Of a stretch of 64,000 nt of DNA, positions 27,967 to 52,740 are shown piece by piece. The notes below the pieces were generated by a model. The model did no database searches, was not told the DNA's origin, and saw only the letters and a list, made by a program, of their open reading frames with translations. This stretch comes from Eubacteriales bacterium (GTDB lineage Bacteria; Bacillota; Clostridia; Oscillospirales; CAG-272), in contig JBJDZH010000011.1 in NCBI GenBank assembly GCA_051867895.1, positions 7,926-71,925 of the forward strand. The letters run 5' to 3'. Position 1 is the stretch's first letter; each line of letters begins with the position of its first letter. A program made the position numbers and the translations under genes.

Positions 27967-27995
27967 TTGACATTTTGCCGGGTATATGCTATCAT
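27967..27995 (+). promoter_or_regulatory. Sigma-A promoter of the seven-gene ABC operon
   Basis: TTGACA-17-TATCAT with TG extension, about 250 nt upstream of the first ATG. Confidence 0.7.
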
Positions 27996-28244
27996 ATCTG
28001 CATATAAAATAAAGGGTGAATCCTTGGATTCTCCGTTATTTTTGACGCAGATTCCGCCCGGAAAAGGCGGAGGCTGCGTTTTCGCCGCCGCAGGCGCAAA
28101 GACAGCGGGATCGTTTCCTATTATTTATATAGCGGACGTCCGTTTTTCTGTGTACGGCGGCAAAGCCCGGGAGCCTGATGGTTCGGCGTTTCCGGGTAGG
28201 TCCGGGATCATCGCCGAATCTAAAACAAGCAGGAGGAAGGTTCT

Positions 28245-31200
28245 ATGAGAAGAAACCACCACAACAGGCTGATTGCTTTCTTGCTGTCTCTCATCATGCT
28301 GTTGGGCTGCGTTGTTCCTCTGTCCGCCGCGGACGCCGCGCCCGCAGAGACAGACGGGGAAAACAGCAGTCTGACAACGACGACGCTGAAGGAGATCAGC
28401 GAAGCCCTGAATGCCATTTCCTACGCGGAGTATCGGGAGAAATACTCGAGCATGTCGCGCGGGACGAAGGAAATCAAGGTCGATCTCGCATCCTATGATA
28501 AGGAGAAGACCACCGCTGCCGTCGAGATGCGCTCAAACTTCTCCGACGACTTCGGGACCACGCAGCCGAAGGCGATCTACATAGGCGACTCCGGCAAGAT
28601 CACCTGGCCGGTCGAGATCCCTCAGACGGGACTTTATGCCGTTGAGCTGATCTACTGCTCCGAGTCCGACAAGACGAACTCCATCGAGCGTATGTTCTAC
28701 ATCAACGACAAGGTGCCGTTTGCGGAAGCACGCTATATTCTGATGACGAAGTACTGGATCCATCATTACGCCGAGAACGGGCGCTTTGCGTTCGATACCA
28801 ACGGCAATGAGCTTCGTCCTTCCACTTCTGTCAAAAGAAAGTGGACGACTCAGTCCCTGATTGACTCCAACGGCTATTACGCGGAGCCGTTTGAATTCTA
28901 CTTTGAAAAGGGACAGAATACCATCTCCCTTGAGGCGGTGCGTGAGGATGTTGTGATCGCCGGCATCCGTCTCTATCCGTATACCGATCTTCCTACCTAC
29001 GAGGAGAAGCTCGCCGAGTATACGCAGAAGGGCTACACCGAAGGAACGGATAAGATCCATCTCGCAGCGGAGACTCCTTCCGCCGTTTCCGAGTATACCA
29101 TTTATCCGATTTATGACAGAACCTCCGCCATTACCGAGCCGCAGCACGCCACGCTCATCTACCGCAACACCATCGGCAGCGAGAAGTGGAAGACGACCGG
29201 TCAGTGGATCGAGTGGGAGTTCGATATCGAGAATGCCGGTCTCTACACGATCGATCTCCGCTATAAGCAGTCGGAGCTGAGCGGCATGTATACCTCCCGC
29301 CGCCTGACGATTGACGGCGAAACGCCGTTTGACGAATGCAACTACCTCCGCTTCGATTATGATACGGACTGGCATGTCGGTCCCGTCTCGGACGGCTCCG
29401 ATAATACGCTTCAGTTCTATCTGGAGCCGGGTCATCATACCATCCGCCTGGAGGTCACCCTCGGCGCCATGGGTGACATCGTTCGCCGCGTCGCCGAATC
29501 CGTCAACAACATCAACCAGTGCTACCTGGACATTATGAAGCTGACGGGCGCCTCCCCGGATAAGTACCGCGACTACGGCTTTGCGCGCGTCATGCCCGAC
29601 ACGATCGAGAATATGATCCTGGAGAGCATCAATCTCTACGAGATCATCGATTACCTCGAAAGCATGAACGGCGTCAGAAGCCAGTATTCCGCAACGCTGA
29701 GCCAGGTGGCCCGCCTGCTTGAGAAAATGGGTACGGACGAGGATGAAATCGCCCGCAACCTGAAGCAGCTCAAGGACTTCGTCGGTACGATGGGTACCTG
29801 GGTCACCAACGTATCCTCCCAGCCGCTGGAACTCGACTACATCCTCATTCAGGGTGCCTCTGCAGAGCTTCCGCGTGCGAACGCGAACTTCTTCCAGAAC
29901 GTCGCGCATGAGATCAAGATGTTCATCGGCAGCTTCTTCACCGATTACAACTCCCTCGGCGGCACCGGTGAAGCGAGCGACGCGGAAGCCGTTACCGCAT
30001 GGGTCGTTACCGGACGCGATCAGGCGCAGATCATGCGCAACCTGATCGATGACCGCTTCACGCCGGACAGCAACATTTTCGTCAATCTGAAGCTCGTTGC
30101 AGGCGGCACACTGCTGCCCTCCGTCCTTGCCGGAATCGGACCGGATGTCGCGCTCGACGGTGCAGACCCGATCCAGTACGCCATCCGCGGCGCTGTCCTT
30201 CCGTTGAACGATTTTGATACGTTCGATGAGGTGTGCAGCCGCTTTACGGAGGCTGCGATGATCCCGCTGACTCTGTACGGCAAGACCTACGGCCTGCCGG
30301 AAACGCAGTCCTTCCTCATGATGTTCTACCGCAAGGATATCCTCGCCGACCTCGGTCTTGAAGTCCCGAAGACATGGGACGATCTGATGGCAATGATCCC
30401 GGTCCTCCAGTTCAACAACATGGAAGTCGGTCTGCCGAACAACTATCAGATCTTCCTCTATCAGATGGGCGGCGACCTCTGGACGGATGAAGGCATGAGA
30501 ATCAATCTCGATTCCAATACGTCGCTGGAAGCCTTCGAGGACATGTGCAACATGTTCACGCAGTACTCCCTGCCGTACACCTACAGCTTTGCAAACCGCT
30601 TCAAGACCGGCGAGATGCCGATCGGTATCGTGGACTACACGCAGTACAACCAGATGATCCTCTTCGCGACGGAAATCGCAGGTCTGTGGGATATGGTCCC
30701 GATCCCCGGCATCATGGATGAAGACGGCAACATCAACAACGTCTGCGTCGCCGGCGTCGGTTCCATCGTCATGATGGACGGCTGCCGCGATCTCGAAGCT
30801 GCATGGAAGTTCATGGACTGGTGGGTCGATCACGACTTCCAGGTCGACTACTCCAATGAGCTTGTCGCCATCATGGGTCCTGCCGCCAAGAACGCAACTG
30901 CGAACCGCCAGGCGCTTGAGGAGCTTCCGTGGTCCTCCACTGAGTATCAGAACCTGAACCGCCAGATGAATAACCTGACCGCTATCCCCGCATATCCGGG
31001 CAGCTACATCATCGGTCGTTATACAAACTTCGCTTTCCTCGCCGCGTATAACGATCTTGCGGATCCGGTCGATTCCCTCCTTAATTATATCAATGCCATC
31101 AATAAGGAAATTACCCGCAAACGCAAAGAATTCAACTACGAGACGCTTGAGGTCGGTCAGACTCTCGCCGAAAAGCGCATGGATCAGGCTTCCGAGCTGA

Positions 31201-31385
31201 TGTCCACGCTCAGCGGCTATGAGAGTGAGATTACTGCTGCAAGCGAAGCCATCGCAGCCGGCGACGTCGCCGCGCTGAATGCGGCAGCCGACGCCTTTGA
31301 GCGTGCGGGCACCGACGAAACACTTACCACGCTCGTCGGATATCTCAGAGACGCGGCGAAGGCGCTCGCGTCCTACGAAAAGTAA
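28245..31385 (+). CDS. Giant extracellular solute-binding protein (two CBM-like jelly-roll modules, helical linker, sugar SBP domain)
   Basis: Signal peptide; repeated W...I...GLY.....Y and YF/LE.G..TI.L motifs; C-terminal SBP motifs YGLPETQSFLMMFYRKDIL...LEVPKTWDD and AAWKFMDWW. Confidence 0.8.
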   Translation: MRRNHHNRLIAFLLSLIMLLGCVVPLSAADAAPAETDGENSSLTTTTLKEISEALNAISYAEYREKYSSMSRGTKEIKVDLASYDKEKTTAAVEMRSNFSDDFGTTQPKAIYIGDSGKITWPVEIPQTGLYAVELIYCSESDKTNSIERMFYINDKVPFAEARYILMTKYWIHHYAENGRFAFDTNGNELRPSTSVKRKWTTQSLIDSNGYYAEPFEFYFEKGQNTISLEAVREDVVIAGIRLYPYTDLPTYEEKLAEYTQKGYTEGTDKIHLAAETPSAVSEYTIYPIYDRTSAITEPQHATLIYRNTIGSEKWKTTGQWIEWEFDIENAGLYTIDLRYKQSELSGMYTSRRLTIDGETPFDECNYLRFDYDTDWHVGPVSDGSDNTLQFYLEPGHHTIRLEVTLGAMGDIVRRVAESVNNINQCYLDIMKLTGASPDKYRDYGFARVMPDTIENMILESINLYEIIDYLESMNGVRSQYSATLSQVARLLEKMGTDEDEIARNLKQLKDFVGTMGTWVTNVSSQPLELDYILIQGASAELPRANANFFQNVAHEIKMFIGSFFTDYNSLGGTGEASDAEAVTAWVVTGRDQAQIMRNLIDDRFTPDSNIFVNLKLVAGGTLLPSVLAGIGPDVALDGADPIQYAIRGAVLPLNDFDTFDEVCSRFTEAAMIPLTLYGKTYGLPETQSFLMMFYRKDILADLGLEVPKTWDDLMAMIPVLQFNNMEVGLPNNYQIFLYQMGGDLWTDEGMRINLDSNTSLEAFEDMCNMFTQYSLPYTYSFANRFKTGEMPIGIVDYTQYNQMILFATEIAGLWDMVPIPGIMDEDGNINNVCVAGVGSIVMMDGCRDLEAAWKFMDWWVDHDFQVDYSNELVAIMGPAAKNATANRQALEELPWSSTEYQNLNRQMNNLTAIPAYPGSYIIGRYTNFAFLAAYNDLADPVDSLLNYINAINKEITRKRKEFNYETLEVGQTLAEKRMDQASELMSTLSGYESEITAASEAIAAGDVAALNAAADAFERAGTDETLTTLVGYLRDAAKALASYEK

Positions 31386-31432
31386 TATATTTCCCCGCGG
31401 CACGAAAACATTCTGATTAAGGAGAAAATGCA

Positions 31433-32377
31433 ATGTCAAAGAAATCTGCTTCACAGGCAGTGACTCGCACAGAGATGACAAAGGCGCAGTGGACATGGTT
31501 TCAGATGAAGCAGCATAAGGTCGCGTACCTGATGGTCGCCCCCTTTATGATCATCTTCTTCCTCTTTACTGTCATCCCCGTCGTTGCCTCTCTGCTTCTG
31601 AGCTTCACATCCTTCAACATGCTGCAGATGCCGAAATTCCTGTTCTTCGACAACTACATCACGCTGTTCCTCGACGACGATCTCTGGGTCATCGCTCTGA
31701 AGAACACGCTGATCTTCGCAGCGATCACCGGTCCCGCATCCTATATCCTCTCCTTCCTCGTTGCATGGTTCATCAACGAGCTCTCCCCGAAGGTGAGAGC
31801 GGTCGTCACCCTGATCTTCTACGCGCCGTCTATTTCCGGTAACGCATACCTGATCTGGCAGACGCTGTTCGCGTCGGATGCATACGGCTGGGTCAACGGT
31901 AAGCTCCTTTCCTGGGGACTGATCGACTCACCGATCCTGTGGTTTCAGAACGAAAAGTACGTTATGGGACTTTGTATCATCGTCGCACTCTGGACCTCCC
32001 TCGGAACTGCGTTCCTTTCCTTCATCGCAGGTCTTCAGGGCATCAACGTCAGCCTCTTTGAGGCGGCGGCGGTCGACGGTCTGAAGAACCGCTGGCAGGA
32101 ACTCTGGTACGTTACCCTCCCGTCCATGAAGCCGCAGCTGATGTTCGGCGCCGTCCTTTCCATCACCGGTGCGTTCGGCTTCGGCGGTATCGTTACCGCC
32201 CTCGCCGGCAACCCGTCCGTCAATTACGCGGCGTACACCATCTCCCACCACCTTGCCGAATACGGCAGTACGCGTTGGGAGGTCGGTTATGCGTCGGCGA
32301 TCTCTTTCGTCCTCTTCCTTATGATGATTGGATCGAACATGGCGGTAACGAAACTGCTTTCAAAGGTGGGACAGTGA
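31433..32377 (+). CDS. Carbohydrate ABC permease (MalF-like) 1
   Basis: Six TM helices; EAA loop LFEAAAVDG; VTLPSMKP. Confidence 0.9.
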   Translation: MSKKSASQAVTRTEMTKAQWTWFQMKQHKVAYLMVAPFMIIFFLFTVIPVVASLLLSFTSFNMLQMPKFLFFDNYITLFLDDDLWVIALKNTLIFAAITGPASYILSFLVAWFINELSPKVRAVVTLIFYAPSISGNAYLIWQTLFASDAYGWVNGKLLSWGLIDSPILWFQNEKYVMGLCIIVALWTSLGTAFLSFIAGLQGINVSLFEAAAVDGLKNRWQELWYVTLPSMKPQLMFGAVLSITGAFGFGGIVTALAGNPSVNYAAYTISHHLAEYGSTRWEVGYASAISFVLFLMMIGSNMAVTKLLSKVGQ

Positions 32378-32378
32378 T

Positions 32379-33251
32379 ATGAAGAAATTAAGAACCAGAA
32401 AACATCGCGTCGTCCTCAACCGCAGCGTCGGCGGCGACCTCGGTATCACCGTTGTTCTTGCGATCTTCGGCGTGTTCATGTTCCTGCCGATGCTCTACAT
32501 CCTCATGAACTCCGTCAAGCCCCTTGACGAGCTCTGGATCTATCCGCCCCGCTTCTACGTCGTTTCTCCGACCTTTGAGAACTTCAGAAGCCTCTTCAGC
32601 CTGATGGGCGACTCCTGGGTGCCGTTCTCCCGCTACATCTTCAATACGGTGTTCATCTCCGTTGTCGGTACTTTCGGCAACCTGATGCTCTCCTCGATGG
32701 CGGCCTACGCGCTCGCAAAGATCCCGTTCCCCGGCGCCAAGTGGATGTTCAAGCTCGTCCGCACCGCGCTGATGTTCTCCTCCACCGTTACCGGTATCGC
32801 GAACTTCATCGTGATGTCCATGCTCGGCTGGGTGGATACATACTGGGCGATCATCGTTCCTGCCTTCGCTTCCTCCCTTGGTCTCTACCTGATGAAGCAG
32901 TTCATGGATTCTAACGTGACGGCGGAAGTGCTTGAAAGCGCACGTCTGGACGGCGCGTCCGAGTTCAAGACCTTCTGGACGATCGCCATGCCGATGGTCA
33001 AGCCTGCATGGCTGACGCTGATTATCTACTGCTTCAAGGATCTGTGGAATGCCGGCGCTTCCATCTACGTCTACAGCGAAGAGCTCAAGTCTCTGAACTA
33101 CGCCATCTCCCAGATCACCGCAGGAGGCGTCGCACGTGCTGGTGCATCCGCAGCAGCATCCGTCGTTATGATGATGGTGCCGATTATCGTGTTCGTCATT
33201 TCCCAGAGTAATATTATTGAGACTATGGGCACAAGCGGTATGAAGGACTAA
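32379..33251 (+). CDS. Carbohydrate ABC permease (MalG-like) 2
   Basis: AAYALAK..FPG and EAA loop VLESARLDGASE. Confidence 0.9.
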   Translation: MKKLRTRKHRVVLNRSVGGDLGITVVLAIFGVFMFLPMLYILMNSVKPLDELWIYPPRFYVVSPTFENFRSLFSLMGDSWVPFSRYIFNTVFISVVGTFGNLMLSSMAAYALAKIPFPGAKWMFKLVRTALMFSSTVTGIANFIVMSMLGWVDTYWAIIVPAFASSLGLYLMKQFMDSNVTAEVLESARLDGASEFKTFWTIAMPMVKPAWLTLIIYCFKDLWNAGASIYVYSEELKSLNYAISQITAGGVARAGASAAASVVMMMVPIIVFVISQSNIIETMGTSGMKD

Positions 33252-33264
33252 GGAGGTAATAATA

Positions 33265-35397
33265 ATGAAAAAATTATCACGCGTCCTGCTTATCCTGATG
33301 GCCCTGGTCACGATCTTTTCCGCTGTGGCGGGCGCGGCAGCGCCGTATGCTACCTACACCTATTCCTCCACCGGCTTCGTCCTGAACTCCCCGGAGGCGT
33401 ATGTGCCGGATATGGTCGTCGATTCCAGCTATATCGGTCTTTCTACTCCCTTTGATGATCCGCGCGACCTCTTCGTCGATCCTGACATGAACGTCTACCT
33501 GGTGGACGCGAAGAATAACCGCATCATCTGCATGGACCGTTATCTCAAGCTCCGCTTTGAGATCAAGTCCTTCGTCAACTCCCAGGGCGTTCCCGACTCG
33601 CTTGCCGACCCCTCCGGCGTGTTTGTAAACGATAAGTACATTTACGTCTGCGACTCGAACAATAACCGTATTGTCATGTTCCATCGCGACGGCAGCTACT
33701 ATAAGATCGTTCCGCAGCCGGTCAGTGACCTCTTTGACGAGGGCGCTATCTACAAGCCGGTCGCAGTCGCGGTCGACTCCTATGGTCGTCTGTTCGTCGT
33801 CTCCTCCACTACCTATCAGGGTATCATCGTTATGAGTGAGGACGGCGGCTTCCACGGCTTCATCGGCGCACAGCAGGTATCCATCTCCGCTATCGAGATC
33901 CTGTGGAGAGAGCTGCAGACCGATGAGCAGCGCTCCTACTCCTCTCAGTACGTCTCCACCGAGTTCAATAATATCACGATCGACAAGGATAACTTCCTGT
34001 ATGTTACGACCTCCTCGATCAAGGAGTCGGATCAGCAGGCGGCCATCCGCTCCAAGAGCAAGAGCGGTACGAACGCACCGGTCAAGAAGCTGAACGCTTC
34101 CGGTGCGGACGTCATGAGACGAAACGGCTTCTATCCGCCGTCCGGCGAGGTTCGCGTCTCCAACTCCGTGCTTGACTCTATCACCGGTCCGTCCAAGATC
34201 ATCGACGCCGCGGTCGGTCCTGAGGGCACCTGGTCCATCATCGATGAAAAGCGCTCCAAGGTCTTTACCTACGATAAGGATGGCAACACGCTTTTCATTT
34301 TCGGTGACAAGGGTATCCAGACCGGTAACATTGACAGCATTGAGGCGATCGTCTATCAGGGCGACAAGATCCTCCTGCTTGACAAATCCAAGGACTCCAT
34401 CACAGTTTACCGCCGCACCGAGTACGGTGACCTTCTGATTAACGCCCTCGCGCATCAGAATGCGCGTAAGTACGACGTGGCGATCGACGACTGGACCGAG
34501 ATCCTGAAGCGCAATAACAACTACGACTCCGCCTACATCGGAATCGGTAAGGCGCTTTACCGCAGCGGCGACTATCAAGAGGCAATGGAGTATTACAAGT
34601 CGGCGTATGAAACGACCAACTATTCCGACGCCTTCAAGGAAGTCCGCAAGAACATCATGTCCAAGTGGCTCCTTGCAGTCATCATCGGCATCGTTGCCAT
34701 CTGCCTCCTGATCGGCAAGTTCTTCGGATACGCTGCCAAGATCAACAAAAAGGCGCAGCTCAAGGTCGGACGCAAGAGCCTCAAGGAGGAGATGCTGTAT
34801 CCCTTCCACCTGATCTTCCATCCGTTCGACGGCTTCTGGGATCTGAAGCATGAGAAGCGCGGCTCCATGCGCAGCGCGTTCCTCATTCTGGTCATTACGA
34901 TCCTCGCGTTCTGCTACCAGTCCGTTGGAACCGGCTATATCTTCAATCCGCGTCAGTCTTCCTACCTCAACATCTTTGCGCAGATCCTTTCCGTGACCGT
35001 TCCGCTGCTCCTGTGGTGCGTTGCGAACTGGTGCCTGACGACGCTGTTTGAGGGCGAGGGCAGCCTCAAGGATATCTTTATTGCGGCATGCTATTCTCTG
35101 ACTCCTCTGCCGCTGCTCATTATCCCGTCCGTTATCCTCTCCAACGTGCTGGCGAAGAACGAGGGACAGATCATTTCCCTGCTTTCCACGATCGCATTTG
35201 CGTGGATGGGCATCCTGGTCTTCCTCGGCATGATGGTAACGCATGACTATTCCATGTTCAAGAATATTCTCACGAGTATCGGCACCATCGTCGGCATGGC
35301 GTTCATCATGTTTATCGCGATCCTCTTCTCGAGCCTGATGGCGAAGATCGTCAGCTTCATCTCCAGCATCATTATCGAGATCAATTACCGCCTGTAA
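33265..35397 (+). CDS. NHL beta-propeller + TPR + YIP1-domain membrane protein
   Basis: Signal peptide; NHL blades YLVDAKNNRI, YVCDSNNNRIV and PVAVAVDSYGRLFV; TPR AYIGIGKALYRSGDYQEAMEYYK; one TM helix, then HPFDGFWDLKHEKRG and about 5 TM helices (YIP1-like). Confidence 0.8.
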   Translation: MKKLSRVLLILMALVTIFSAVAGAAAPYATYTYSSTGFVLNSPEAYVPDMVVDSSYIGLSTPFDDPRDLFVDPDMNVYLVDAKNNRIICMDRYLKLRFEIKSFVNSQGVPDSLADPSGVFVNDKYIYVCDSNNNRIVMFHRDGSYYKIVPQPVSDLFDEGAIYKPVAVAVDSYGRLFVVSSTTYQGIIVMSEDGGFHGFIGAQQVSISAIEILWRELQTDEQRSYSSQYVSTEFNNITIDKDNFLYVTTSSIKESDQQAAIRSKSKSGTNAPVKKLNASGADVMRRNGFYPPSGEVRVSNSVLDSITGPSKIIDAAVGPEGTWSIIDEKRSKVFTYDKDGNTLFIFGDKGIQTGNIDSIEAIVYQGDKILLLDKSKDSITVYRRTEYGDLLINALAHQNARKYDVAIDDWTEILKRNNNYDSAYIGIGKALYRSGDYQEAMEYYKSAYETTNYSDAFKEVRKNIMSKWLLAVIIGIVAICLLIGKFFGYAAKINKKAQLKVGRKSLKEEMLYPFHLIFHPFDGFWDLKHEKRGSMRSAFLILVITILAFCYQSVGTGYIFNPRQSSYLNIFAQILSVTVPLLLWCVANWCLTTLFEGEGSLKDIFIAACYSLTPLPLLIIPSVILSNVLAKNEGQIISLLSTIAFAWMGILVFLGMMVTHDYSMFKNILTSIGTIVGMAFIMFIAILFSSLMAKIVSFISSIIIEINYRL

Positions 35398-35418
35398 CCC
35401 GGGGAAAGGAGTAAAAGA

Positions 35419-38400
35419 ATGAATATAAAGAAATTGGCTTCGGCAGCTCTGTCCCTGGTTATGGCGTGCGGCGCGATCGTTCCCGCCTCGATTCAGCCGG
35501 TCTTCGCAGCATGGGAAGACAAGGTGGACGAGGACGGCAATCCGATCATTGATTACCTTACCAAGGTGTACGCTACCCCGGAAGAAAAGCTCGCCGATAT
35601 GATCCTTGTCAAGGAGCAGAACGGTCATCAGATCTGGTATGAAGAGTTTACCGGCGAAATCGCGTATGTCGATCTTGCCAGCGGTCAGATCCTGTTCACC
35701 AATCCGTGGGACGTTGCCGCGCCCTATGACACGACCGGTTCTGCTTCCACCAAGCAGCAGCTCCTCTCTCAGATTCATATTTCCTATCTGGACAACGGCG
35801 TCGAAAAGTCGATGTACAGCTACACGGACGCGGCGCTGCGCGGTCAGATCCTTCTCAAAAACATCAAGAACGGCGTTCGTGTCGAGTACACGATCGGCGA
35901 GGAGCAGACCATCCGTCTCGTCCCGCGTCTGATTGAAAAGAGCCGCTTTGAGACCCTGATCCTCGACTACATCGAAGACAACTGGATCCATGATAAGCTC
36001 GCTTCCTTCTATACCCTGAAGGATCCCTTCGACTTGAGCCTCACTGAGCGCGCCATCAAGGAAATGCGCGCCAAGTTCCCGATCACCGAAAAAATGGCAG
36101 TTTACGTCTGCGACCCGGATATTAAGCCGCGTGAGCTTCAGCAGCTTGAAGGGTATATCAAGACGTTCTGCACCGCTTATTCCTACGAGGAACTGGATAA
36201 GGACCATCAGGCAACCGGCTATACCGGTGAGGATGCTGCACCGCCGCTGTTCAAGCTGGCGCTGGAGTACACCATCACCGAGGATGGCGATCTGGAAGCA
36301 AGACTTCCTGCTAACGGCATCCGTTACGACGAATCCGCCTACAAACTCAAGACCGTTACGGTTCTCCCGTACATGGGCGCCGGCAGCAATAACTTCACCG
36401 GTTACACCTTCATTCCGGACGGCGACGGTACGCTGATCCGTTTTGAGGATGTCAAGGGGTCCACCTACAACATCTCCGGCAGCATCTACGGCCCCGACTA
36501 CGCATACCATAAGATCTCCAATCAGCACACTGAGGTTATGCGCTGGCCGGTATACGGCGTTGTGACCAACTACACGCGCAACTGGACTGAGACCTATGAG
36601 GAGATCATCTCCGAGGAGACCGTCGACGAGGAAGGCAATGTCGTTCCCGCCGTCAAGCAGAAGGTCACTGAGAAGAAGAGCTACGCCGAGGATAAGGGCT
36701 TCCTTGCCATCATCACCGAGGGCGACTCCCTGGCTTCCCTCATGAGCGTCCACGGCGGCACGCTCCACTCCTTCAATACCGTCTACCCGATGTTCACCCC
36801 GCGCCCGAGCGATGAGTACAACCTCCGCGCTTCGATCTCCGTCGGTGCGAACACCACCTGGACCGTTGAGTCCAAGCGTAAATACACCGGCAGCTACCGC
36901 ATCCTTTATAAGATGCTTACCGACGAGAATATCGCCAAGGAGAAGAATCTGAAGGATACCTACGCAGCCAACTATATGGGCATGGCGAACGCCTACCGTG
37001 ATTACCTCTACTCCAACGGCACGCTGACCATGCTTGAGGATACGACGGCGGATATCCCGCTCTATATCGAATCCTTCGGCTCCATGGAGACCACAAAGCG
37101 CATCCTTTCCTTCCCGGTGACCGTCGACACGCCTCTGACCACCTTTGAGGACATCAAGACGATGTACGACGAGCTGAGTGAAGCTGGCGTCGGCAGAATC
37201 AACTTCCGCCTGACCGGCTTTGCCAACGGCGGTATGGATTCCACCGTTCCGTATAAGCTGAAATGGATGAAGGTCGTGGGCGGCTCTGATGGCTTCAGCG
37301 ACCTGCTCAGCTACTCCAAGGAGAAGGGCTTCGGCGTCTTCCCGGATTTTGACTTTGAGTACGCAAAGATGGACGAGATTGGCGACGGTCTCAGCCTGCG
37401 CAGCCACGCAGTCAAGACCATCGACGACCGCTATACCTCCAAGCGTTATTACGACGCCGCTACTCAGTCCTTCACCAACGACTACTCCCTCTGCATTTCC
37501 GCTTCTGCGTTCGATCACTTCTACACGAAGTTCAGTTCGAACTACAAGAAGTTCGACGTCGATTCCATTTCCGTGTCCACCCTCGGTACGGAGCTCAACT
37601 CCGACTTTGACGAGGATGAACCGTACAACCGTGAGGATTCCAAGCAGTTTACCATCGAGCTCCTCCAGAAGATCGATGCGGACTATAAGAACGTGATGGT
37701 GGATGGCGGCAACGCGTACACGCTCCCGTATGCCGACCACATCGTCAAGATCTCCACCAACAGCTCCAAGTTCGTGCAGGCGAGCGAGGCGATCCCGTTC
37801 ATGGGTATCGTTCTCCACGGTGCAAAGTACTTTGCGGGCACCCCGATCAATATGGAAGGCGATATTTCTTCTGCCGTCCTGAAGGCGATCGAGAACGGCG
37901 CCAGCCTGTACTTCATCCTCTCCAAGCAGAACACAAGCGAGCTGAAGGAGGACGTTGAATTCTGCCAGTACTACTCCGTTGCCTATGACATCTGGAAAGA
38001 TGAAGTCGTTGAGTACTACAAGCAGTTGAACGATGCAACAAAGGATCTTCAGACCTCCCTGATTGTCGATCACGAATTCCTCTATGGCGAGAGAGTCCCG
38101 GATCCCGATGAGCTTGCAGCCGATGAGGCAGTTCTTAAGGCTCAGGAAGAAGCCGAGGCGCTTGCAGCTGAGGAAGCTCTTATTAAGGAAGAGCGTCAGA
38201 AGAAGTATGCGGAGCTCCACGGTGAAACCGTCGAGGATCTGACCGAAACCGAAGAACCGGATGAGGAAGAAACAGACGACGAGGACACCGAAGAACCCGC
38301 AGAAGAGGAAACCGCTGAGCCGGAAGCTGAACAGCCTGCGGACGGCGCATATGTCAAGACCAAGTACACGACGACCAAGGGCTCCATCGTCCGCGTCGAG

Positions 38401-38511
38401 TATGAGGGCGGCGTAAACTTCCTCCTCAACTACAATTCCTTTGACGTAACGGTCAAATACAACGGTCAGACGTACACGATCGCCTCGCTTGGCTTCGTGC
38501 GCATCGGCTGA
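35419..38511 (+). CDS. Large secreted DUF5696-like protein
   Basis: Signal peptide ending VFA-A; VLPYMGAG..GY.FIPDGDG.LI.F, WPVYG, GFANGG, GGNAY.LPYA and IPF..IVLHG motifs. Confidence 0.7.
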   Translation: MNIKKLASAALSLVMACGAIVPASIQPVFAAWEDKVDEDGNPIIDYLTKVYATPEEKLADMILVKEQNGHQIWYEEFTGEIAYVDLASGQILFTNPWDVAAPYDTTGSASTKQQLLSQIHISYLDNGVEKSMYSYTDAALRGQILLKNIKNGVRVEYTIGEEQTIRLVPRLIEKSRFETLILDYIEDNWIHDKLASFYTLKDPFDLSLTERAIKEMRAKFPITEKMAVYVCDPDIKPRELQQLEGYIKTFCTAYSYEELDKDHQATGYTGEDAAPPLFKLALEYTITEDGDLEARLPANGIRYDESAYKLKTVTVLPYMGAGSNNFTGYTFIPDGDGTLIRFEDVKGSTYNISGSIYGPDYAYHKISNQHTEVMRWPVYGVVTNYTRNWTETYEEIISEETVDEEGNVVPAVKQKVTEKKSYAEDKGFLAIITEGDSLASLMSVHGGTLHSFNTVYPMFTPRPSDEYNLRASISVGANTTWTVESKRKYTGSYRILYKMLTDENIAKEKNLKDTYAANYMGMANAYRDYLYSNGTLTMLEDTTADIPLYIESFGSMETTKRILSFPVTVDTPLTTFEDIKTMYDELSEAGVGRINFRLTGFANGGMDSTVPYKLKWMKVVGGSDGFSDLLSYSKEKGFGVFPDFDFEYAKMDEIGDGLSLRSHAVKTIDDRYTSKRYYDAATQSFTNDYSLCISASAFDHFYTKFSSNYKKFDVDSISVSTLGTELNSDFDEDEPYNREDSKQFTIELLQKIDADYKNVMVDGGNAYTLPYADHIVKISTNSSKFVQASEAIPFMGIVLHGAKYFAGTPINMEGDISSAVLKAIENGASLYFILSKQNTSELKEDVEFCQYYSVAYDIWKDEVVEYYKQLNDATKDLQTSLIVDHEFLYGERVPDPDELAADEAVLKAQEEAEALAAEEALIKEERQKKYAELHGETVEDLTETEEPDEEETDDEDTEEPAEEETAEPEAEQPADGAYVKTKYTTTKGSIVRVEYEGGVNFLLNYNSFDVTVKYNGQTYTIASLGFVRIG

Positions 38512-38528
38512 GAAAGGGGAGTTAAGCA

Positions 38529-39506
38529 ATGAGTGCTAAAGTAAAGAACGACGATATCTTCGGCGCATCCGGCAAGAAGAGAAAACGCGGCGCTTCCCTT
38601 GACGTCAAGAAGGCACGTGCCGGCTGGTGGTTCGTGCTGCCCTTTGTCCTCGGTTTCGTCCTTTTGTACCTGCCGATCATCTACGATTCCATCAAGTACA
38701 GCTTCCACGAGATCCGCATCCTCTCCGGCGGCGGCTTCCGACTGGAATGGGTGGGCTGGCAGAACTACAGCGACGCGCTGTTTGTCGATCCCTCCTATGT
38801 GCAGACTCTGACAAGCGGCATCAAACAGTTGATTATCGACATTCCCGCAATCGTCATTTTCTCCCTGTTTGTCGCTATCCTTCTGAACGGCAAGATCGCC
38901 GGACGCGCAGCGTTCCGTGCTATCTTCTTCATCCCGGTCCTTCTGACGACCGGTCTGATTGCGGACATCGACAACGCCAACATTCTCATGGATAACATGG
39001 AATCCGAAAGCGGCATCGATACCGGTGCGGGTACCAACACCGTCTCCGAGATCGTTTCCGTCATGGACGTTCAGATGCTCTTCAACAACATGATGATCGG
39101 TACGGAGCTGGTCGAATATGTTGTAAATCTGGTCAACAACATCTTCAACATTATCAACCGCTCCGGTGTTCAGATGCTGATCTTCCTCTCCGGACTTCAG
39201 TCCATCTCTCCCGCCATTTACGAATCCTGCTCCATCGACGGCGCAAGCGCATGGGAAACTTTCTGGAAGATCACCCTTCCGATGGTCAGCCCGATGATCC
39301 TTGTCAACACCGTCTATACGGTCATCGACTCCTTTACATCCTCCAACAACAACGTCATGAGATATATCTCAAACGTCAACCAGCAGGCAAACGGAAACGT
39401 TCTTGCTTCTGCCATGTCATGGATGTACTTCCTGCTTGTTATGCTCATCATAGCAGCGGTAGCCGGTGTCCTCAGCGCGTTCGTATTCTATCAGAGAAGA
39501 GATTAA
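38529..39506 (+). CDS. Carbohydrate ABC permease (MalF-like) 3
   Basis: FRAIFFIPV and EAA loop IYESCSIDGASAWETFWKITLP. Confidence 0.9.
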   Translation: MSAKVKNDDIFGASGKKRKRGASLDVKKARAGWWFVLPFVLGFVLLYLPIIYDSIKYSFHEIRILSGGGFRLEWVGWQNYSDALFVDPSYVQTLTSGIKQLIIDIPAIVIFSLFVAILLNGKIAGRAAFRAIFFIPVLLTTGLIADIDNANILMDNMESESGIDTGAGTNTVSEIVSVMDVQMLFNNMMIGTELVEYVVNLVNNIFNIINRSGVQMLIFLSGLQSISPAIYESCSIDGASAWETFWKITLPMVSPMILVNTVYTVIDSFTSSNNNVMRYISNVNQQANGNVLASAMSWMYFLLVMLIIAAVAGVLSAFVFYQRRD

Positions 39507-39524
39507 GAGAGGAGGTACGCATAC

Positions 39525-40589
39525 ATGAATAAAGTCGAAACGGCTCCGAGAGTCACAAAGGAAACCAAGAACAAGATACGTGTGGAGTTTGAGCGTACTC
39601 CCCTTCTGGAGCGTCTCAAAGCCAAGTTCGTAAACGTCTACTTCTTCAAGAGAGTCCTCGTTTACATCTTCAAGTTCCTGTTCCTGCTCGGCATTTCCTA
39701 CGTCATCCTCTTCCCGTTCTATTCGAAGATCGCATCTTCCTTTATGAGCCCTGAGGATTTCGTCGATGTTACGGTCCGCCTGATCCCGCGTCATCCGACG
39801 CTCAGCACCTATAAGGCGATCATCGTCGACAACAACTACTTCACCGCATTCTTCAATACATTGTGGCTGTCCGGACTGTGCGCGGTCCTCCAGACCTTTG
39901 TCTGCTGCCTTGTCGGCTACGGTCTGGCAAAGTTCAAGTTCCGCGGAAACAAACTCCTGTTTTTGCTGGTTGTCTTCACGATGGTCGTGCCGCACTCCAC
40001 TTTGCAGCTCTCCATGTTCATGAAGTTCCGTTATTTCGATATCGGATTCGGAAAATTCAGCATTCTTAACTTCCTCGGCGGCGGTCTGATCGATTCCGTG
40101 GCGATCCTCAACGATACGTCCATTAACCTTATCAACACCCGCTGGCCGCTGATTATCCTCTCCGCTACTGGTCTCGCCTTCAAGAACGGCTTGTATGTCT
40201 TCATGCTCCGTCAGTTCTTCAAGGGCGTTCCCGACGAGCTGGAAGAATCCGCTTATCTGGACGGCTCCGGCGTGTTCAGAACCTTTGTCCAGATCATCCT
40301 GCCGCTTTCTATCCCGGTTCTGATTACGGTCTTCATGTTCACGTTCTCCTGGCAGTGGACGGATAACTTCTACACCAACGTGTTCTACACCACAACTGGT
40401 CCGCTTCTGATGCCGAAGATCGTCAAGGTTCCGAAGTCTCTCGATACCGCTTACGCCGGCGAAAACATGTACGTCGCGGCGATCCGCAATACCTGCGGTA
40501 TCCTGATCCTGCTCCCCCTGCTCATTCTCTACTCTTTCATGCAGAGATACATCATTCAGGGTATCGAGCGCTCCGGTATCACGGGCTGA
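39525..40589 (+). CDS. Carbohydrate ABC permease (MalG-like) 4
   Basis: GYGLAKFKFRG, RQFFKGVPDELEESAYLDG and QRYIIQGI. Confidence 0.9.
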   Translation: MNKVETAPRVTKETKNKIRVEFERTPLLERLKAKFVNVYFFKRVLVYIFKFLFLLGISYVILFPFYSKIASSFMSPEDFVDVTVRLIPRHPTLSTYKAIIVDNNYFTAFFNTLWLSGLCAVLQTFVCCLVGYGLAKFKFRGNKLLFLLVVFTMVVPHSTLQLSMFMKFRYFDIGFGKFSILNFLGGGLIDSVAILNDTSINLINTRWPLIILSATGLAFKNGLYVFMLRQFFKGVPDELEESAYLDGSGVFRTFVQIILPLSIPVLITVFMFTFSWQWTDNFYTNVFYTTTGPLLMPKIVKVPKSLDTAYAGENMYVAAIRNTCGILILLPLLILYSFMQRYIIQGIERSGITG

Positions 40590-40603: not shown

Positions 40604-40639
40604 AAAAAAGACGCTGAATTCTTTCAGCGTCTTTTTTTT
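40604..40639. terminator. Terminator of the ABC operon (bidirectional with alaS)
   Basis: AAAAAAGACGCTGAA-TTCT-TTCAGCGTCTTTTTTTT. Confidence 0.9.
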
Positions 40640-43652: not shown

Positions 43653-45110
43653 ATGGAACGAATCTGTCTGATCGCATCGGACGGCAAGGGCAGGATCGCC
43701 CCGGAGATCTATGGACATTTCGCCGAGCATCTCGGAGGTGTGTTTCGCGGCGGGCTATGGGTAGGCGAAGATTCCGATGTGCCCAACATCCGCGGCTTCC
43801 GCCGTTTCGTGGTGGAGAAATTCCGCGCGATCCGACCGCCGGTCCTTCGCTATCCGGGAGGATGCTTTGCCGAAACGTACAACTGGCGCGACGGCATCGG
43901 TCCGCGCGCTCATCGTCCGAAAACGCTGAACTGGTGGTACAGGGACGACCGGCGTGTGGAAACGAATGAAGTCGGCACGCATGAATTTGTCGATTTCTGC
44001 CGCATGACCGGCGCGCAGCCGTATCTGGCGGGGAATCTCACTTCCATGACGCCGCTTGACTTGCGTAACTGGATGGAGTACTGCGATCTGCCCGCGGGAA
44101 CGACGACGCTTGCCGCCGAGCGGGCGGAAAACGGGGACAGCGAGCCGCTGGGGATTCGTTTCTGGGGCATCGGGAACGAGAACTGGGGCGGCGGAGGCAA
44201 TATGACGCCGGATATGTACGCGCGCGAATATGTCCGCTATGCCACCATCTGCCACTCCGCGAACGTCAACGGAGCGCGCTACGTCGCCTGCGGTGCAAAC
44301 GGCTTCGATGTGGCGTGGACGGAGCGTTTTATGCGTGCGTTTTCCGAAAAGCGGGCTCCGCTGTGGGGACTGTCCTTCCATTATTACTGCGGCGGAGCGG
44401 GTGATCCGGTTGCGTTCACGGAAGCGGAGTGGGATACGCTGGTCGGCCGCGCCGCGCAGATGCAGGAGCTGATCGAGCGGCACAAGGCGGCGATGCTGAC
44501 CTTCGATCCGAAGCGGGAGATAAAGATCGTTGTGGACGAGTGGGGCTGCTGGCATCCGGACGGAAGCGGTCCGAGCCGGGGATACAATCTGTTTGAGCAG
44601 CAGTCCACGATGCGAGACGCCGTGATTGCGGCGCTCACGCTGAACATCTTCAACAACAACTGCGACGTGGTCGCGATGGCGAACGTTGCGCAGTTGTGCA
44701 ACAACCTGCACTGCCTGTTCCTCGCGGACTGGGAGTACGAGATCGTAACGCCGACGTATCATGTGTTCGATCTGTATAAGGAGCATCAGGGCGCGCGCCA
44801 TATTCATACCGCCGGCGCGTCGGACAAGCTGTCTGTCTCCGCCTCGGAGAAAAACGGTGTTGTCACGGTGACGATGGCGAATCTCAGCTTCGGCGAGGCG
44901 CGCGAGATCGAGCTGTCCTCCTTCGACGTGCCGCTGGGCACGCAGGCGGTCTGGACGGTGTTGGCGTGCGAGGATCCGCACGCGCACAATACCTTTGAGA
45001 CGCCGGACACGGTGACGCCGGGCGTGCCGCAGACGCTGCCCGTGCGGGAGGGAAAATTGACGCTGACGCTTCCCGCTGCGGCGGTCGCCCGGCTGGAGAT
45101 CCGGTTCTGA
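43653..45110 (+). CDS. abfA: GH51 alpha-L-arabinofuranosidase (cytoplasmic)
   Basis: IYGHFAEHLG, RYPGGCFA, acid/base GNENWG, nucleophile DEWG.W, and MANVAQ..N.L. Confidence 0.92.
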   Translation: MERICLIASDGKGRIAPEIYGHFAEHLGGVFRGGLWVGEDSDVPNIRGFRRFVVEKFRAIRPPVLRYPGGCFAETYNWRDGIGPRAHRPKTLNWWYRDDRRVETNEVGTHEFVDFCRMTGAQPYLAGNLTSMTPLDLRNWMEYCDLPAGTTTLAAERAENGDSEPLGIRFWGIGNENWGGGGNMTPDMYAREYVRYATICHSANVNGARYVACGANGFDVAWTERFMRAFSEKRAPLWGLSFHYYCGGAGDPVAFTEAEWDTLVGRAAQMQELIERHKAAMLTFDPKREIKIVVDEWGCWHPDGSGPSRGYNLFEQQSTMRDAVIAALTLNIFNNNCDVVAMANVAQLCNNLHCLFLADWEYEIVTPTYHVFDLYKEHQGARHIHTAGASDKLSVSASEKNGVVTVTMANLSFGEAREIELSSFDVPLGTQAVWTVLACEDPHAHNTFETPDTVTPGVPQTLPVREGKLTLTLPAAAVARLEIRF

Positions 45111-45309
45111 GCTGCCGCGCAGGCGGATAGCCGGAACGGATCCGGCGGCTTCCCTTTTGCGGTCGCTTTCCGGAAGGGACGGGGAGTGCTTTTTCTGGTT
45201 TTGCAGAGTACCGTTCGGGATAACGCTCCCCGCTATGTTTTTTTGGAAAATAAAGGGGAACAAAGCCGCACGGACTTCGTCCAAAAAACAAACGACTCCG
45301 GAGGTATTT

Positions 45310-45696
45310 ATGCGGAAAAACATCATCTATACCGCTGCGCATGTGCTGTTCAGCATCGTTCTGTTCTGGCTTCTGACGTTTTTGCCGGATCTCGGCGCAG
45401 GGCGGGAGTGGGAGCATTACAGCATGGAGCTTCTTTTTATCTGGTATCCGGCGGCGTGTATCATCGGCGGCGTCCTTGCCGGTCTGATCCCGCGGATCCC
45501 GCGGAAAACCCGCGTTCTGTGCGCGGTGCTGCTCGCTTTGATCGGGGCGCCGGGCGTGGCGCTCTCCGGCGTATGCCGACCCGCCGGCATCGCGCTGGAG
45601 GTCATGATCTATGCAAGCGGAGTGCTCTTAGGGCGCCTGTTCGCTGGCGTGGCAAGCACCTGCCGGAATAACCGGATACGGAGAGAGAAGCGCTGA
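45310..45696 (+). CDS. Small 4-TM hypothetical membrane protein
   Basis: GGAGGT RBS before the ATG at 45310; four hydrophobic segments. Confidence 0.6.
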   Translation: MRKNIIYTAAHVLFSIVLFWLLTFLPDLGAGREWEHYSMELLFIWYPAACIIGGVLAGLIPRIPRKTRVLCAVLLALIGAPGVALSGVCRPAGIALEVMIYASGVLLGRLFAGVASTCRNNRIRREKR

Positions 45697-45828
45697 GATC
45701 GGTCAGAAAAGCCGTGCTTTCGCCCTCTCCGGACGGAACAGAGGCTCAGAAATCGGGCAGACAGGATCGTCTTTACGCGGGGCGCGGAACGATTTACCGT
45801 TCCGCGTCCTGTTTTTGTGCGTTTCCCG

Positions 45829-45857
45829 TTGACAAAACGGCGGCGGTATGCTACACT
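45829..45857 (+). promoter_or_regulatory. Sigma-A promoter of the GH95 gene
   Basis: TTGACA-17-TACACT with TG extension. Confidence 0.7.
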
Positions 45858-45898
45858 CGCCATGGAAACTATCCGAGTACGTGAAGGAGGAATCGGCA

Positions 45899-48106
45899 AT
45901 GAATGAAAATCGGGTGCTCCGGTATGCGGGAGAGGCGCGTAACTGGAGCGAAGCGCTGCCGCTCGGCAACGGCAGGATCGGCGCGATGATGTATTCCGGC
46001 GCGCTGACAGACCGGATCCGGCTGAACGAGGATACGCTCTGGTCCGGACGGCCGGAACCAAACAAAAAGACGTTTGACACATCGGCTCTGCCGGAGGTGC
46101 GGCGGCTGATTGGTGAGGGAAAGTACGCCGAGGCGCAGGACAGGATCTCCGCCGCCATGCCGAACACGCATTCGCAGGGATATCTGCCGGCGGGCGAGGT
46201 GCTGGTGGAGCTGATCGGCGCGGATACACGCCCCGAGGAGTATGTCCGGGCGCTGGACCTGGAGACGGCGGTTCTGTCAGATTCGTATACGCTTGTGCGG
46301 ACGCGGCAGGGACAGCATCAGGTGGTCAACCGCGTGACGCGCGAGTCGTTTCTGTCCGCGGCGGATCAGGCACTGGTGTACCGCGTACATATGGAGCATC
46401 CGGCGGATTTCCGCATTGTGACCGCGTGCGATCTGCGGCATACGGTGCAGGCGGAAAACGGCGTTCTGACGCTGGACGGCGTCTGCCCGGTCGAGGCAAA
46501 TATGTATGATACGGTCGTACGCTATGAGGGCGAGAGCGTCTGCTACCGCATCGCCCTGCGCGTCGTACCGGACGACGGAAAGCCGTACGGCGCGGGCGCG
46601 GCGCTGTGGCTGCGCGGCTGTACCGGCTTCACCATGTACCTGACGATCGAGACGTCGTTTGCGGGCTATGACCGGATGCCGCTGAGCGAGGGACGCGAAT
46701 ATAAGGAGCGCGCTCTCGCCGTTCTGGACGCGGCGTGTGCGCGTTCGTATGACGAGCTGCGCCGCCGCCATATCGAGGATTACGGCGCGCTGTTCGGGCG
46801 CGTGTCGCTTACGCTGGGCGACGCACCCAGGCGGACGACGGATGAGCGGCTTCTCGACGCGGCGGACGATCCGGCGCTGGCGGCGCTGCTCTTCGATTAC
46901 GGGCGGTATCTTCTGATCTCCTGCTCGCGTCCCGGAACGCAGGCGGCAAATCTGCAGGGAATCTGGAATGAGATGCCGATCGCGCCGTGGCACTCCAACT
47001 ACACGATGAACATCAATACGGAGATGAACTACTGGCCGGCAGAGGTGTGCGCGCTGCCAGAATGCCATGAGCCGATGTTCCGCCTGGTGCGCGAGCTGGC
47101 GGCGCGCGGCAACAGCATGGGATACCGCGGCTGGGCATCGTGGCACAACTCCGATTTGTGGCGGTATTCGCTGCCGTCTACGCGCGGCGTGCAGTGGGGC
47201 TTCTGGCTGATGGGCGGCTTCTGGTCCTGCCGCCATTTGTGGGAGCATTATCTGTATACGCAGGACGAGGAGTTTTTGCGAAAGGCGTATCCGCTCTTTA
47301 CCGGCGCGCTCGACTTTTTGCTCGACTGGGTCGTGAAAACGCCGGACGGACACTGGACCACGTGCCCCTCTACCTCGCCGGAGAACAGCTTCCTCGACGG
47401 AGACCGGCGCGCATCGGCCGCAGCCGGATGCGCCATGGATCTCTCGATCATCCGCGAGCTGTGCGAGTATACGCGCCGCGCGGCGGAGATCTTAGGCGAG
47501 GATTTTACGCCGTATGCCGATCTGTCCACGCATCTCCAGCCGCTGTCCATCGGGGCGGACGGGCGTCTGCTCGAATGGGGAACGGAGCTGCCGGAGGCGG
47601 AGGCGGGACACCGGCACGTGTCGCATCTGTACGGCGTGTATCCGTCCGATACGCTGCGTCCCGGCGACGCATGCTATGACGCTGCCCGCAGGTCGCTGGA
47701 TTACCGGATGTCGCACGGCGGCGGTCACACAGGCTGGAGCAACGCGTGGATCGCGTGCCTCTTCGCGCGCTTCGGCGACGGAGAGAAGGCGCATGAGCGG
47801 GTTCTCCAAATGTTCCGTCAGTCGATTTACCCGAATATGCTCGACGCGCATCCGCCGTTCCAGATCGACGGCAACTTCGGCATCACGGCGGCGATCGCCG
47901 AGATGCTGCTGCAAAGCAGCTGGGAGGACGGCGCGTGGACGCTTTCCGTCCTGCCGGCGCTTCCTGCGGCATGGAAGCGGGGTGAGGTGCGCGGTCTGCG
48001 TGCAAGAGGAGGATTTATCGTATCGATCCGTTGGGACGAAAACGGCGTGGATACCGGGGTGGAAAACTCGTGCGGGCTTCCGTACCGGATCCGCCGTCCG
48101 CAGTGA
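45899..48106 (+). CDS. GH95 alpha-L-fucosidase / L-galactosidase (cytoplasmic)
   Basis: W.EALPLGNGRIGAM, NEDTLWSG, YGRYLLISCSR, ANLQGIWN, NINTEMNYW, SPEN, HRHVSHL and PFQIDGNFG. Confidence 0.92.
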   Translation: MNENRVLRYAGEARNWSEALPLGNGRIGAMMYSGALTDRIRLNEDTLWSGRPEPNKKTFDTSALPEVRRLIGEGKYAEAQDRISAAMPNTHSQGYLPAGEVLVELIGADTRPEEYVRALDLETAVLSDSYTLVRTRQGQHQVVNRVTRESFLSAADQALVYRVHMEHPADFRIVTACDLRHTVQAENGVLTLDGVCPVEANMYDTVVRYEGESVCYRIALRVVPDDGKPYGAGAALWLRGCTGFTMYLTIETSFAGYDRMPLSEGREYKERALAVLDAACARSYDELRRRHIEDYGALFGRVSLTLGDAPRRTTDERLLDAADDPALAALLFDYGRYLLISCSRPGTQAANLQGIWNEMPIAPWHSNYTMNINTEMNYWPAEVCALPECHEPMFRLVRELAARGNSMGYRGWASWHNSDLWRYSLPSTRGVQWGFWLMGGFWSCRHLWEHYLYTQDEEFLRKAYPLFTGALDFLLDWVVKTPDGHWTTCPSTSPENSFLDGDRRASAAAGCAMDLSIIRELCEYTRRAAEILGEDFTPYADLSTHLQPLSIGADGRLLEWGTELPEAEAGHRHVSHLYGVYPSDTLRPGDACYDAARRSLDYRMSHGGGHTGWSNAWIACLFARFGDGEKAHERVLQMFRQSIYPNMLDAHPPFQIDGNFGITAAIAEMLLQSSWEDGAWTLSVLPALPAAWKRGEVRGLRARGGFIVSIRWDENGVDTGVENSCGLPYRIRRPQ

Positions 48107-48109
48107 GGC

Positions 48110-48140
48110 GTGCGGGGAGCAGCTGCTCCCCGCACTTTTT
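48110..48140 (+). terminator. Intrinsic terminator after the GH95 gene
   Basis: GTGCGGGGAGC-AGCT-GCTCCCCGCAC-TTTTT. Confidence 0.85.
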
Positions 48141-48172
48141 CTTGCGTCCGTCCTTCACAGAGCGCGCCGCTA

Positions 48173-48263
48173 TTGATTTTCGGCGGCAGATACTGTATAA
48201 TACAACTCATGCCGCGTGTCGGATAGGCAGCCGCGGCGCCGGAGCGTCCGTCCGGCATTTTTT
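48173..48263 (+). promoter_or_regulatory. Promoter plus putative leader attenuator of the ABC exporter
   Basis: TTGATT-17-TATAAT (48173-48201); mini-ORF MPRVG* (48209-48226); hairpin GCCGGA/TCCGGC plus AT6 (48238-48263) upstream of the RBS. Confidence 0.5.
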
Positions 48264-48284
48264 CATCCAAGGAGGCGGAAAGGC

Positions 48285-51994: not shown

Positions 51995-52028
51995 AAAAAG
52001 CAGGGCTTTTCAAAAGCCCTGCTTTTTT
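51993..52028. terminator. Bidirectional terminator
   Basis: AAAAAAGCAGGGCTTTT-C-AAAAGCCCTGCTTTTTT. Confidence 0.85.
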
Positions 52029-52035
52029 CAGTCTT

Positions 52036-52728: not shown

Positions 52729-52740
52729 GGCAGTCCTCCG

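Follow-up and report, generated by a model that had tools for sequence, protein, structure and literature searches.

The DNA analysed here is a window of 64,000 nucleotides (nt) on contig JBJDZH010000011.1 of Eubacteriales bacterium (GCA_051867895.1, G000 below), a 1.97-Mb assembly that is 77% complete, and all positions are those of the window unless another contig is named. At 28245-40589 of the window, there is an operon of seven co-oriented open reading frames (ORFs) on the + strand. They encode, in order, a giant lipoprotein solute-binding protein (SBP), two permeases (P1 and P2), a membrane protein with an NHL propeller, TPR repeats and a Yip1 domain (NHL-TPR-Yip1), a DUF5696 protein, and two further permeases (P3 and P4). 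The gaps between the genes are 47, 1, 13, 21, 17, and 18 nt in this order, and a purine-rich ribosome-binding site lies ahead of each gene. The ORF, promoter, and terminator scans bear out the initial annotation, which had read the locus as one seven-gene cluster with gaps of 1-47 nt, a single promoter, and a single terminator. It had also placed two large extracytoplasmic proteins between the permease pairs; these are the NHL-TPR-Yip1 and DUF5696 proteins, and both carry signal peptides.

The first gene (28245-31385, +) codes for the giant SBP of 1046 amino acids (aa), which has the lipobox LLGC (Cys22). The sole Pfam family match in this protein is SBP_bac_1/SBP_bac_8 at residues 596-886, the part with a CUT1-type SBP fold. 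SBP_bac_1 scored 77 bits (residues 596-864), which assigns the domain to the family-1 (cluster D) SBPs of CUT1 importers. In addition, the best relatives of this domain in the PDB are sugar SBPs, for instance Lin1841 (5ysb, E 2.8e-10). The AlphaFold2 model of residues 40-575 (predicted local distance difference test, pLDDT, 90.1) contains two beta-sandwiches and a helical bundle. Foldseek matched it to tandem carbohydrate-binding modules (CBMs) of family 22 (4xup, E 4.7e-6) and family 51 (2ygm, E 8e-6), and also to enzymes of glycoside hydrolase (GH) families GH101 and GH98; the matches that bear CBMs have E values of 5e-7 to 1e-5 and low TM-scores. The predicted N-terminal part of the giant SBP is CBM-like in the sense of fold resemblance, not of family membership.

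The four permease genes form two pairs on the + strand. P1 (31433-32377, 314 aa) is of the MalF/UgpA type and P2 (32379-33251, 290 aa) of the MalG/UgpE type, whereas P3 (38529-39506, 325 aa) and P4 (39525-40589, 354 aa) are of the MalF and MalG types, respectively. All matched BPD_transp_1 of Pfam with 25-44.5 bits, P1 lying just below the cut-off (25.0 against 26.4), and the best NCBIfam matches were UgpA, UgpE, MalG, and GlcU. The EAA-type coupling loops could be read directly from the sequences: EAAAVDG...TLP in P1 (at residue 210), ESARLDG...AMP in P2, ESCSIDG...TLP in P3, and ESAYLDG...ILP in P4. All four permeases thus combine the BPD_transp_1 fold with the EAA loop, the features by which a CUT1 importer (TC 3.A.1.1) is recognised. 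Furthermore, P1 and P3 are only 23% identical and P2 and P4 27%, in agreement with the view that the locus holds two different MalF/MalG-type pairs with four intact loops.

The NHL-TPR-Yip1 protein (33265-35397, +, 710 aa) has a signal peptide, an ectodomain at residues 26-465, and a membrane part at residues 466-710, which consists of one transmembrane segment and a Yip1 domain with five. Yip1 (PF04893) matched residues 515-684 with 54.9 bits (cut-off 28.6), and the hydropathy peaks fit the five-segment domain of this family. The domain is single-copy in G000. A complex prediction of P1, P2, and the Yip1 membrane domain (residues 455-710), with a 45-row alignment for each, gave a score of 0.00 and a mark of 0.32, which speaks neither for nor against binding.

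The DUF5696 protein (35419-38511, +, 1030 aa) matched its Pfam family with 474 bits and has a signal peptide, a barrel at about residues 541-895, and an acidic disordered linker at residues 935-976. We modelled it from a 46-sequence alignment with AlphaFold2 (pLDDT 85.4, predicted TM-score 0.80). Foldseek found 5opq (E 8.8e-26) and NagBb (5wzp, E 6e-21) as relatives of the model. Structural comparison by VIA gave Z 29.1 against 5opq_D, with 584 of 658 residues aligned at a root-mean-square deviation of 4.1 A and 14% identity, and Z 27.4-28.0 against NagBb. Across these GH129 structures, Z ranged from 27 to 29 with 560-584 residues aligned, and other folds scored lower (GH101 about 19, GH36 and GH13 about 18). 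The model has the domain succession of GH129, namely a beta-sandwich, a (beta/alpha)8 barrel, and a second beta-sandwich. At the sequence level, the GH129 model PF11308 had no match in G000, and DUF5696 was the only family found for this protein at E <= 0.01. The DUF5696 family profile detected NagBb with E 0.0013, at positions 566-633 only, around barrel strands 2-3.

The GH129 nucleophile is described as Asp435 of NagBb, equivalent to Asp486 of ZGAL_3152 (PMC5698469). Collinear offsets from two sequence anchors put the corresponding site of DUF5696 near residues 713-719, and there is no conserved acid there. D729, in the loop after barrel strand 4, is near-invariant (45 of 46 sequences) and lies 10-16 residues past the expected site; E825 is kept in 46 of 46. 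A sub-profile of residues 636-900 retrieved no GH129 chain, only spurious matches such as interferon-gamma. A GH129-family protein from another genome (G131) was tried as a bridging sequence and was rejected (hhalign probability 0.4%). The modelled DUF5696 is best called GH129-like in fold, and an enzymatic role is possible but unproven. The first reading of the locus had counted no ATPase, regulator, or enzyme in it. No ATPase or regulator domain was found in the seven proteins with Pfam and NCBIfam, but the statement of no enzyme is unsafe because DUF5696 has a glycoside-hydrolase fold.

Upstream of the first gene, there is a strong sigma-70-type promoter-like site (27967-27995, +; TTGACA-17-TATCAT with a TG extension, 11 of 12 matches), whose hexamers are invariant in all five aligned relatives. 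The promoter scan as a whole returned 11 promoter-like sites against 8.2 expected, and only this one stands out. The site is followed by a leader of about 250 nt (27996-28244, +), with an early hairpin plus U-run at about 28012-28044 and a 9-bp stem in which 28180-28188 pairs with 28212-28220. This stem ends 10 nt 5′ of the ribosome-binding site AGGAGG (28231-28236). In an RNAalifold alignment of five sequences, seven of the nine stem pairs were kept in all five, and in one relative (L010), one pair was altered on both sides (UA to CG). The conserved leader may act by attenuation or in the control of translation. Between 20000 and 46000, Rfam showed no riboswitch or known leader, with weak matches at the terminator alone; a scan for cre-like patterns gave 7 sites against 5.0 expected, none of them within the promoter or leader. 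The operon ends with a strong intrinsic terminator (40604-40637, +; a 15-bp stem and then a T-run). Facing it, at 40691-40657, is the terminator of alaS, which converges on the operon.

The distribution of the operon was surveyed by a search with a DUF5696 alignment in which each species was represented by a single genome; this gave 80 close loci from assemblies of gut, rumen, or digester Clostridia. In tblastn searches with the seven proteins, the order SBP-P1-P2-Yip-DUF-P3-P4 was found in every one of these loci. Sixty of them are complete, all in the same order, and the other 20 all end at a contig edge. No cis SBP accompanies P3P4 in any of the 60 complete loci. Furthermore, 17 distant loci were found in which DUF5696 is only 22-42% identical; all seven genes are present in the 14 complete ones, and the other three run into the end of their contig. 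A survey of this kind had been proposed in the initial annotation, and its expectation held: the two accessory genes occur together with the four permeases in 60 of 60 close loci and 14 of 14 untruncated distant loci. These results support that the seven genes are one inherited unit. Within the same family, DUF5696 was present in 34 of 36 genomes, and in other families of the order it was present in 13 of 24; in G000, it is single-copy. One complete module, 58-75% identical to the window proteins, is on a contig labelled Methanocorpusculum sp. (L018, JAGARL010000319.1), which is probably a mis-binned bacterial contig.

Six of the 17 distant loci are paralogous modules in one genome, G038. Their neighbours are genes for GH78-like, GH2, GH127-like, GH106, and GH31 enzymes, for AraC/LacI regulators, and for additional SBPs of the ordinary kind; one such SBP gene lies directly 3′ of P4 (locus L099). 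One of the six (L103, G038:C21:33000-52999) is permuted to P3-P4-SBP-P1-P2-Yip-DUF, with GH31 and GH106 in the usual position after DUF5696. According to the initial annotation, similar gene orders in polysaccharide-degrading Bacillota usually stand beside glycoside hydrolases. This is so in some relatives, such as G038. In the window and in the close relatives, by contrast, the neighbouring genes vary and most of them have housekeeping roles; they include alaS, iscS/nifU, carB, a VanY-type carboxypeptidase, DegV, divergent ROK genes, and occasionally GH123, GH3, or GH51. Among the 105 flanking ORFs scanned in the close loci, there was no conserved ATPase or regulator.

In the window itself, iscS and nifU lie upstream of the operon, and the convergent alaS lies downstream, followed by GH51 and GH95. 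The region beyond alaS (43653-53667) holds a GH51 arabinofuranosidase, a GH95 fucosidase, two fused ATP-binding cassette (ABC) exporter genes, and a SASA-type acetylesterase. The GH51 and GH95 genes are 3-5 kb 3′ of the operon, so that carbohydrate-active genes are nearby but outside it. In addition, the window contains two large secreted-looking proteins with little annotation, one of 1694 aa at 7690-12774 (Big_5 and a weak alpha-2-macroglobulin match) and one of 1172 aa at 19062-22580 (a weak SLH match).

We also compared pairwise-distance matrices of the proteins across 56 loci. The matrices fell into two blocks, one with the N- and C-terminal halves of the SBP, P1, and P2, and the other with DUF5696, P3, P4, and the NHL part. 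Partial correlations were +0.5 to +0.67 within the blocks and mostly -0.11 to -0.46 between them. The partial correlation of the DUF5696 barrel with the two SBP halves was about zero, and the Yip1 membrane domain was intermediate. This pattern fits two functional halves.

Gram-positive CUT1 sugar importers (TC 3.A.1.1) often share an orphan MsmX/MsmK-type ATPase. A candidate of this kind is encoded in G000 on another contig (G000:C25:38550-39653). It is a MalK/UgpC-type ATPase of 370 aa, which scored 483 bits against UgpC (cut-off 432). The gene is flanked by an S1-domain gene, and no permease is nearby. Its orthologs, with 72-92% identity, were found in four of the five related genomes checked.

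Meanwhile, G000 carries 20 full-length lipoprotein paralogs of about 500 aa at 20 different places. The one in the window (57539-59032, +, 497 aa) corresponds to G000:C11:65473-66939, with E 1.3e-54 to the query paralog. It belongs to a mini-locus without permeases (55086-59032) that is typical of the 20 sites and consists of an AraC gene (55086-55922, -), a GFO/IDH/MocA oxidoreductase gene (56111-57361), and the orphan SBP. No CUT1-type sugar permease lies next to any of the 20 paralogs. An AraC gene was seen within two genes of nine of them, a GH or polysaccharide lyase gene within about three genes of five (GH2, GH28 twice, GH29, and GH43 with a heparinase-like gene), and 12 have at least one of the two. 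A second type of orphan SBP was also seen, represented by lipoproteins of 806 and 832 aa that are 37% identical (G000:C1:91.5-93.4 kb and G000:C24:43-45.5 kb; L115 and L121). Both are without permeases, and one of them adjoins a GH38 mannosidase gene.

The assignment of the orphans as binding proteins comes from their profile. The single protein at 57539-59032 had no Pfam match at E <= 1e-5, and a single orphan had no match in the PDB, but a 19-sequence profile was SBP-like (AbnE, 6rjy, E 2.7e-6). Furthermore, hhalign matched this profile to the SBP that follows P4 in the G038 module with 99.5% probability (E 4e-23, 370 columns), against 7% for the giant SBP and 4.6% for the SBP of a CUT1 system on contig 7. 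This match supports, at the level of sequence, a tie between the seven-gene module and the orphan SBP family, which is what is new here.

The number of sugar permeases is small in comparison. There are 17 BPD_transp_1 matches in G000, and among those that were scanned beyond the operon, the two-permease systems were Pot, Pst, a PRK11622-type system, and one CUT1-like system. The last has its own ATPase and SBP (C7:21.4-25.4 kb), and it rules out that the module is the sole CUT1 system of G000. In three relatives of higher completeness, G025, G019, and G041 (97, 91, and 90%), a search with P2 returned the module's own permeases only, plus one match of E 0.002 in G019. The same three genomes have 19, 20, and at least 25 matches to the SBP family, respectively. 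The nine BPD_transp_1 matches of G025 are the four of the module, a Pot pair (its second permease assigned by position only), an Opp pair, and one single permease. The orphan SBP family is expanded across the relatives, with up to at least 25 matches and, in G014, 169 candidates. In the set of 24 genomes from other families, six have the orphan SBP family, all of them with DUF5696, and it was found in none of the 11 without DUF5696; this co-occurrence is no more than suggestive, because the genomes compared are relatives and one protein served as the query.

Taken together, we consider it somewhat more probable than an even chance that the operon encodes one conserved oligosaccharide-import machine with two CUT1 channels, in which orphan SBPs feed P3P4 and the ATPase is supplied in trans. 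The giant lipoprotein SBP would capture a glycan via its CBM-like domains and hand it over to P1P2. P3P4, whose cis SBP would have been lost in the seven-gene form, would be fed in trans by orphan SBPs from the small loci that contain AraC or glycosidase genes. In that case, the operon would serve as a common gate, or hub, for many substrates, and the orphan MalK/MsmX-type ATPase on C25 would power both P1P2 and P3P4. The DUF5696 and NHL-TPR-Yip1 proteins never leave the permeases and are therefore taken as integral parts, which would be the fixed extracytoplasmic and membrane components of the machine. Most likely, the Yip1 protein would anchor or organise the parts, and DUF5696 would trim or hold the incoming glycan at P3P4. 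The general hub of the initial annotation has gained from the 20 orphan paralogs, the few CUT1 permeases, and the match to a module-linked SBP, but it is still reached by inference. A wider version seems to us possible rather than probable: the gut Clostridia of this family may route nearly all oligosaccharide uptake through one constitutive dual-translocon importer that includes the GH129-like ectoprotein and an NHL-TPR-Yip1 scaffold and on which tens of separately regulated SBPs dock, with DUF5696 as a non-hydrolytic or trimming adaptor at P3P4.

Several observations weigh against the common-gate machine. The link between orphans and module depends on a single SBP encoded with a module (L099), together with its relative L100. 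In G006 (72% complete), there are 19 SBP matches and no DUF5696 match, and G004 and G014 have only weak DUF5696-like matches yet at least 25 SBP matches each; incompleteness of these genomes may explain the missing or weak DUF5696. The CUT1-like system on C7 could serve the orphan SBPs instead. The ATPase in trans, which the initial annotation had asked to be located, was found in G000, but in G025 (97% complete) no MalK/MsmX ortholog was detected above a PotA-like match of 50% identity. Linkage or recombination could by itself produce the two-block pattern of the distance matrices, since the genes of each block lie side by side. Two points that bear on DUF5696 catalysis belong here as well: the stretch shared with NagBb aligns LTGFANGG with LDGWAQPG, and the expected acid/base positions vary (D762 in 25 and D773 in 29 of 46 sequences). 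Finally, a physical complex of the seven proteins and a scaffolding role of Yip1 are conjectural.

A different explanation, which we regard as unlikely, would make the locus an ordinary polysaccharide-utilisation operon dedicated to a single glycan. Two independent CUT1 importers would then take up different breakdown products, DUF5696 would be a true extracellular exo-glycosidase of a new GH129-like family, and the NHL propeller would bind glycan while anchored by Yip1; there would be no obligatory super-complex and no hub, and the orphans would work with other partners or serve as sensors. Such an enzyme is in keeping with the complete GH129 fold (Z 29.1) and the near-invariant Asp729 of DUF5696. 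In G038, the six modules beside GH78-like, GH2, GH127-like, GH106, and GH31 genes and AraC/LacI regulators have a substrate-specific look, and in the window, GH51 and GH95 lie 3-5 kb downstream; however, the seven genes also stay together at loci where all neighbours are housekeeping genes. Type I importers require an SBP, and two independent importers are difficult to reconcile with a P3P4 pair that has no cis SBP in 60 of 60 complete close loci. Furthermore, in the three genomes where no other CUT1 permease was found, there are nevertheless 19 to at least 25 SBP paralogs.

A housekeeping envelope function, in which the module takes up or recycles fragments of the cell's own wall or capsule glycan and DUF5696 acts on self glycan, is very improbable: it would account for a core, single-copy operon beside alaS and iscS/nifU, for its near-universal presence (34 of 36 family genomes), for the housekeeping neighbours in many relatives (alaS, iscS/nifU, carB, and the VanY-type carboxypeptidase), and for the strong, conserved promoter, but the paralogous expansion next to plant- or host-glycan hydrolases in G038 and the giant SBP with CBM-like modules typical of polysaccharide capture argue against it, and nothing in the window ties the module to wall enzymes.

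In the usual picture, an ABC sugar importer consists of a single binding protein, a pair of permeases, and an ATPase. In the module described here, seven genes in a fixed arrangement encode two channels together with three large accessory proteins, and the module is core to a family of abundant gut and rumen Clostridia. If the common-gate reading is true, it would explain why binding proteins number in the tens in these small genomes while sugar permeases are nearly absent, and why the accessory genes never part from the permeases. It would also offer a single genetic target for studying how uncultured fibre and mucin degraders feed, and DUF5696 would be defined as a new family of glycosidases or else as an adaptor derived from one. 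In the full-text literature outside subscription journals, we found no description of DUF5696, PF18952, or a module of Yip1, NHL, and ABC genes.

The core of the system is a CUT1 importer and not a SusCD system. The initial annotation had called the locus a Gram-positive counterpart of SusCD-type assemblies, and as a functional analogy this is acceptable: as in the SusCD systems of Bacteroidota, surface glycan capture would be coupled to import. However, neither Pfam nor NCBIfam gave a SusC- or SusD-type domain in the seven proteins, and in contrast to SusCD, the system lacks a TonB-dependent barrel, a SusD-like protein, and an outer membrane. The nearest parallel for the Yip1 protein is YknW of YknWXYZ in Bacillus, a Yip1-family membrane protein encoded alongside an ABC transporter and described as modulating the assembly of YknXYZ (PMC4887032). 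However, YknYZ is a MacB-type exporter, whereas the Yip1 domain here accompanies type I importers and forms one protein with an NHL-TPR ectodomain.

With GH129 (NagBb alpha-N-acetylgalactosaminidase, 5wzn; ZGAL_3152 3,6-anhydro-D-galactosidase, 5opq), the DUF5696 protein shares the whole three-domain fold and a short homology near barrel strands 2-3. Unlike these enzymes, it is always encoded between permease pairs, and it is separated from them by the 14% identity and the lack of a Pfam GH129 match. With CUT1 importers that use a shared ATPase, the module has in common the MalF/MalG-type permeases, the EAA loops, the family-1 SBP, and an ATPase gene outside the operon. It differs from them in having two permease pairs with GH129-like and NHL-TPR-Yip1 proteins between them, a 1046-aa SBP with CBM-like domains, and a second pair without a cis SBP.

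Importers fed by several binding proteins are known: HisJ and LAO serve HisQMP, and AmiA, AliA, and AliB serve AmiCDEF. The module would resemble them in that many receptors would feed one translocon. Unlike in those systems, about 20 paralogs are scattered here in separately regulated mini-loci, and we infer their partnership with the translocon. If this partnership is true, the design of one gate with many receptors would be the equivalent, in Gram-positive bacteria, of modular glycan capture.

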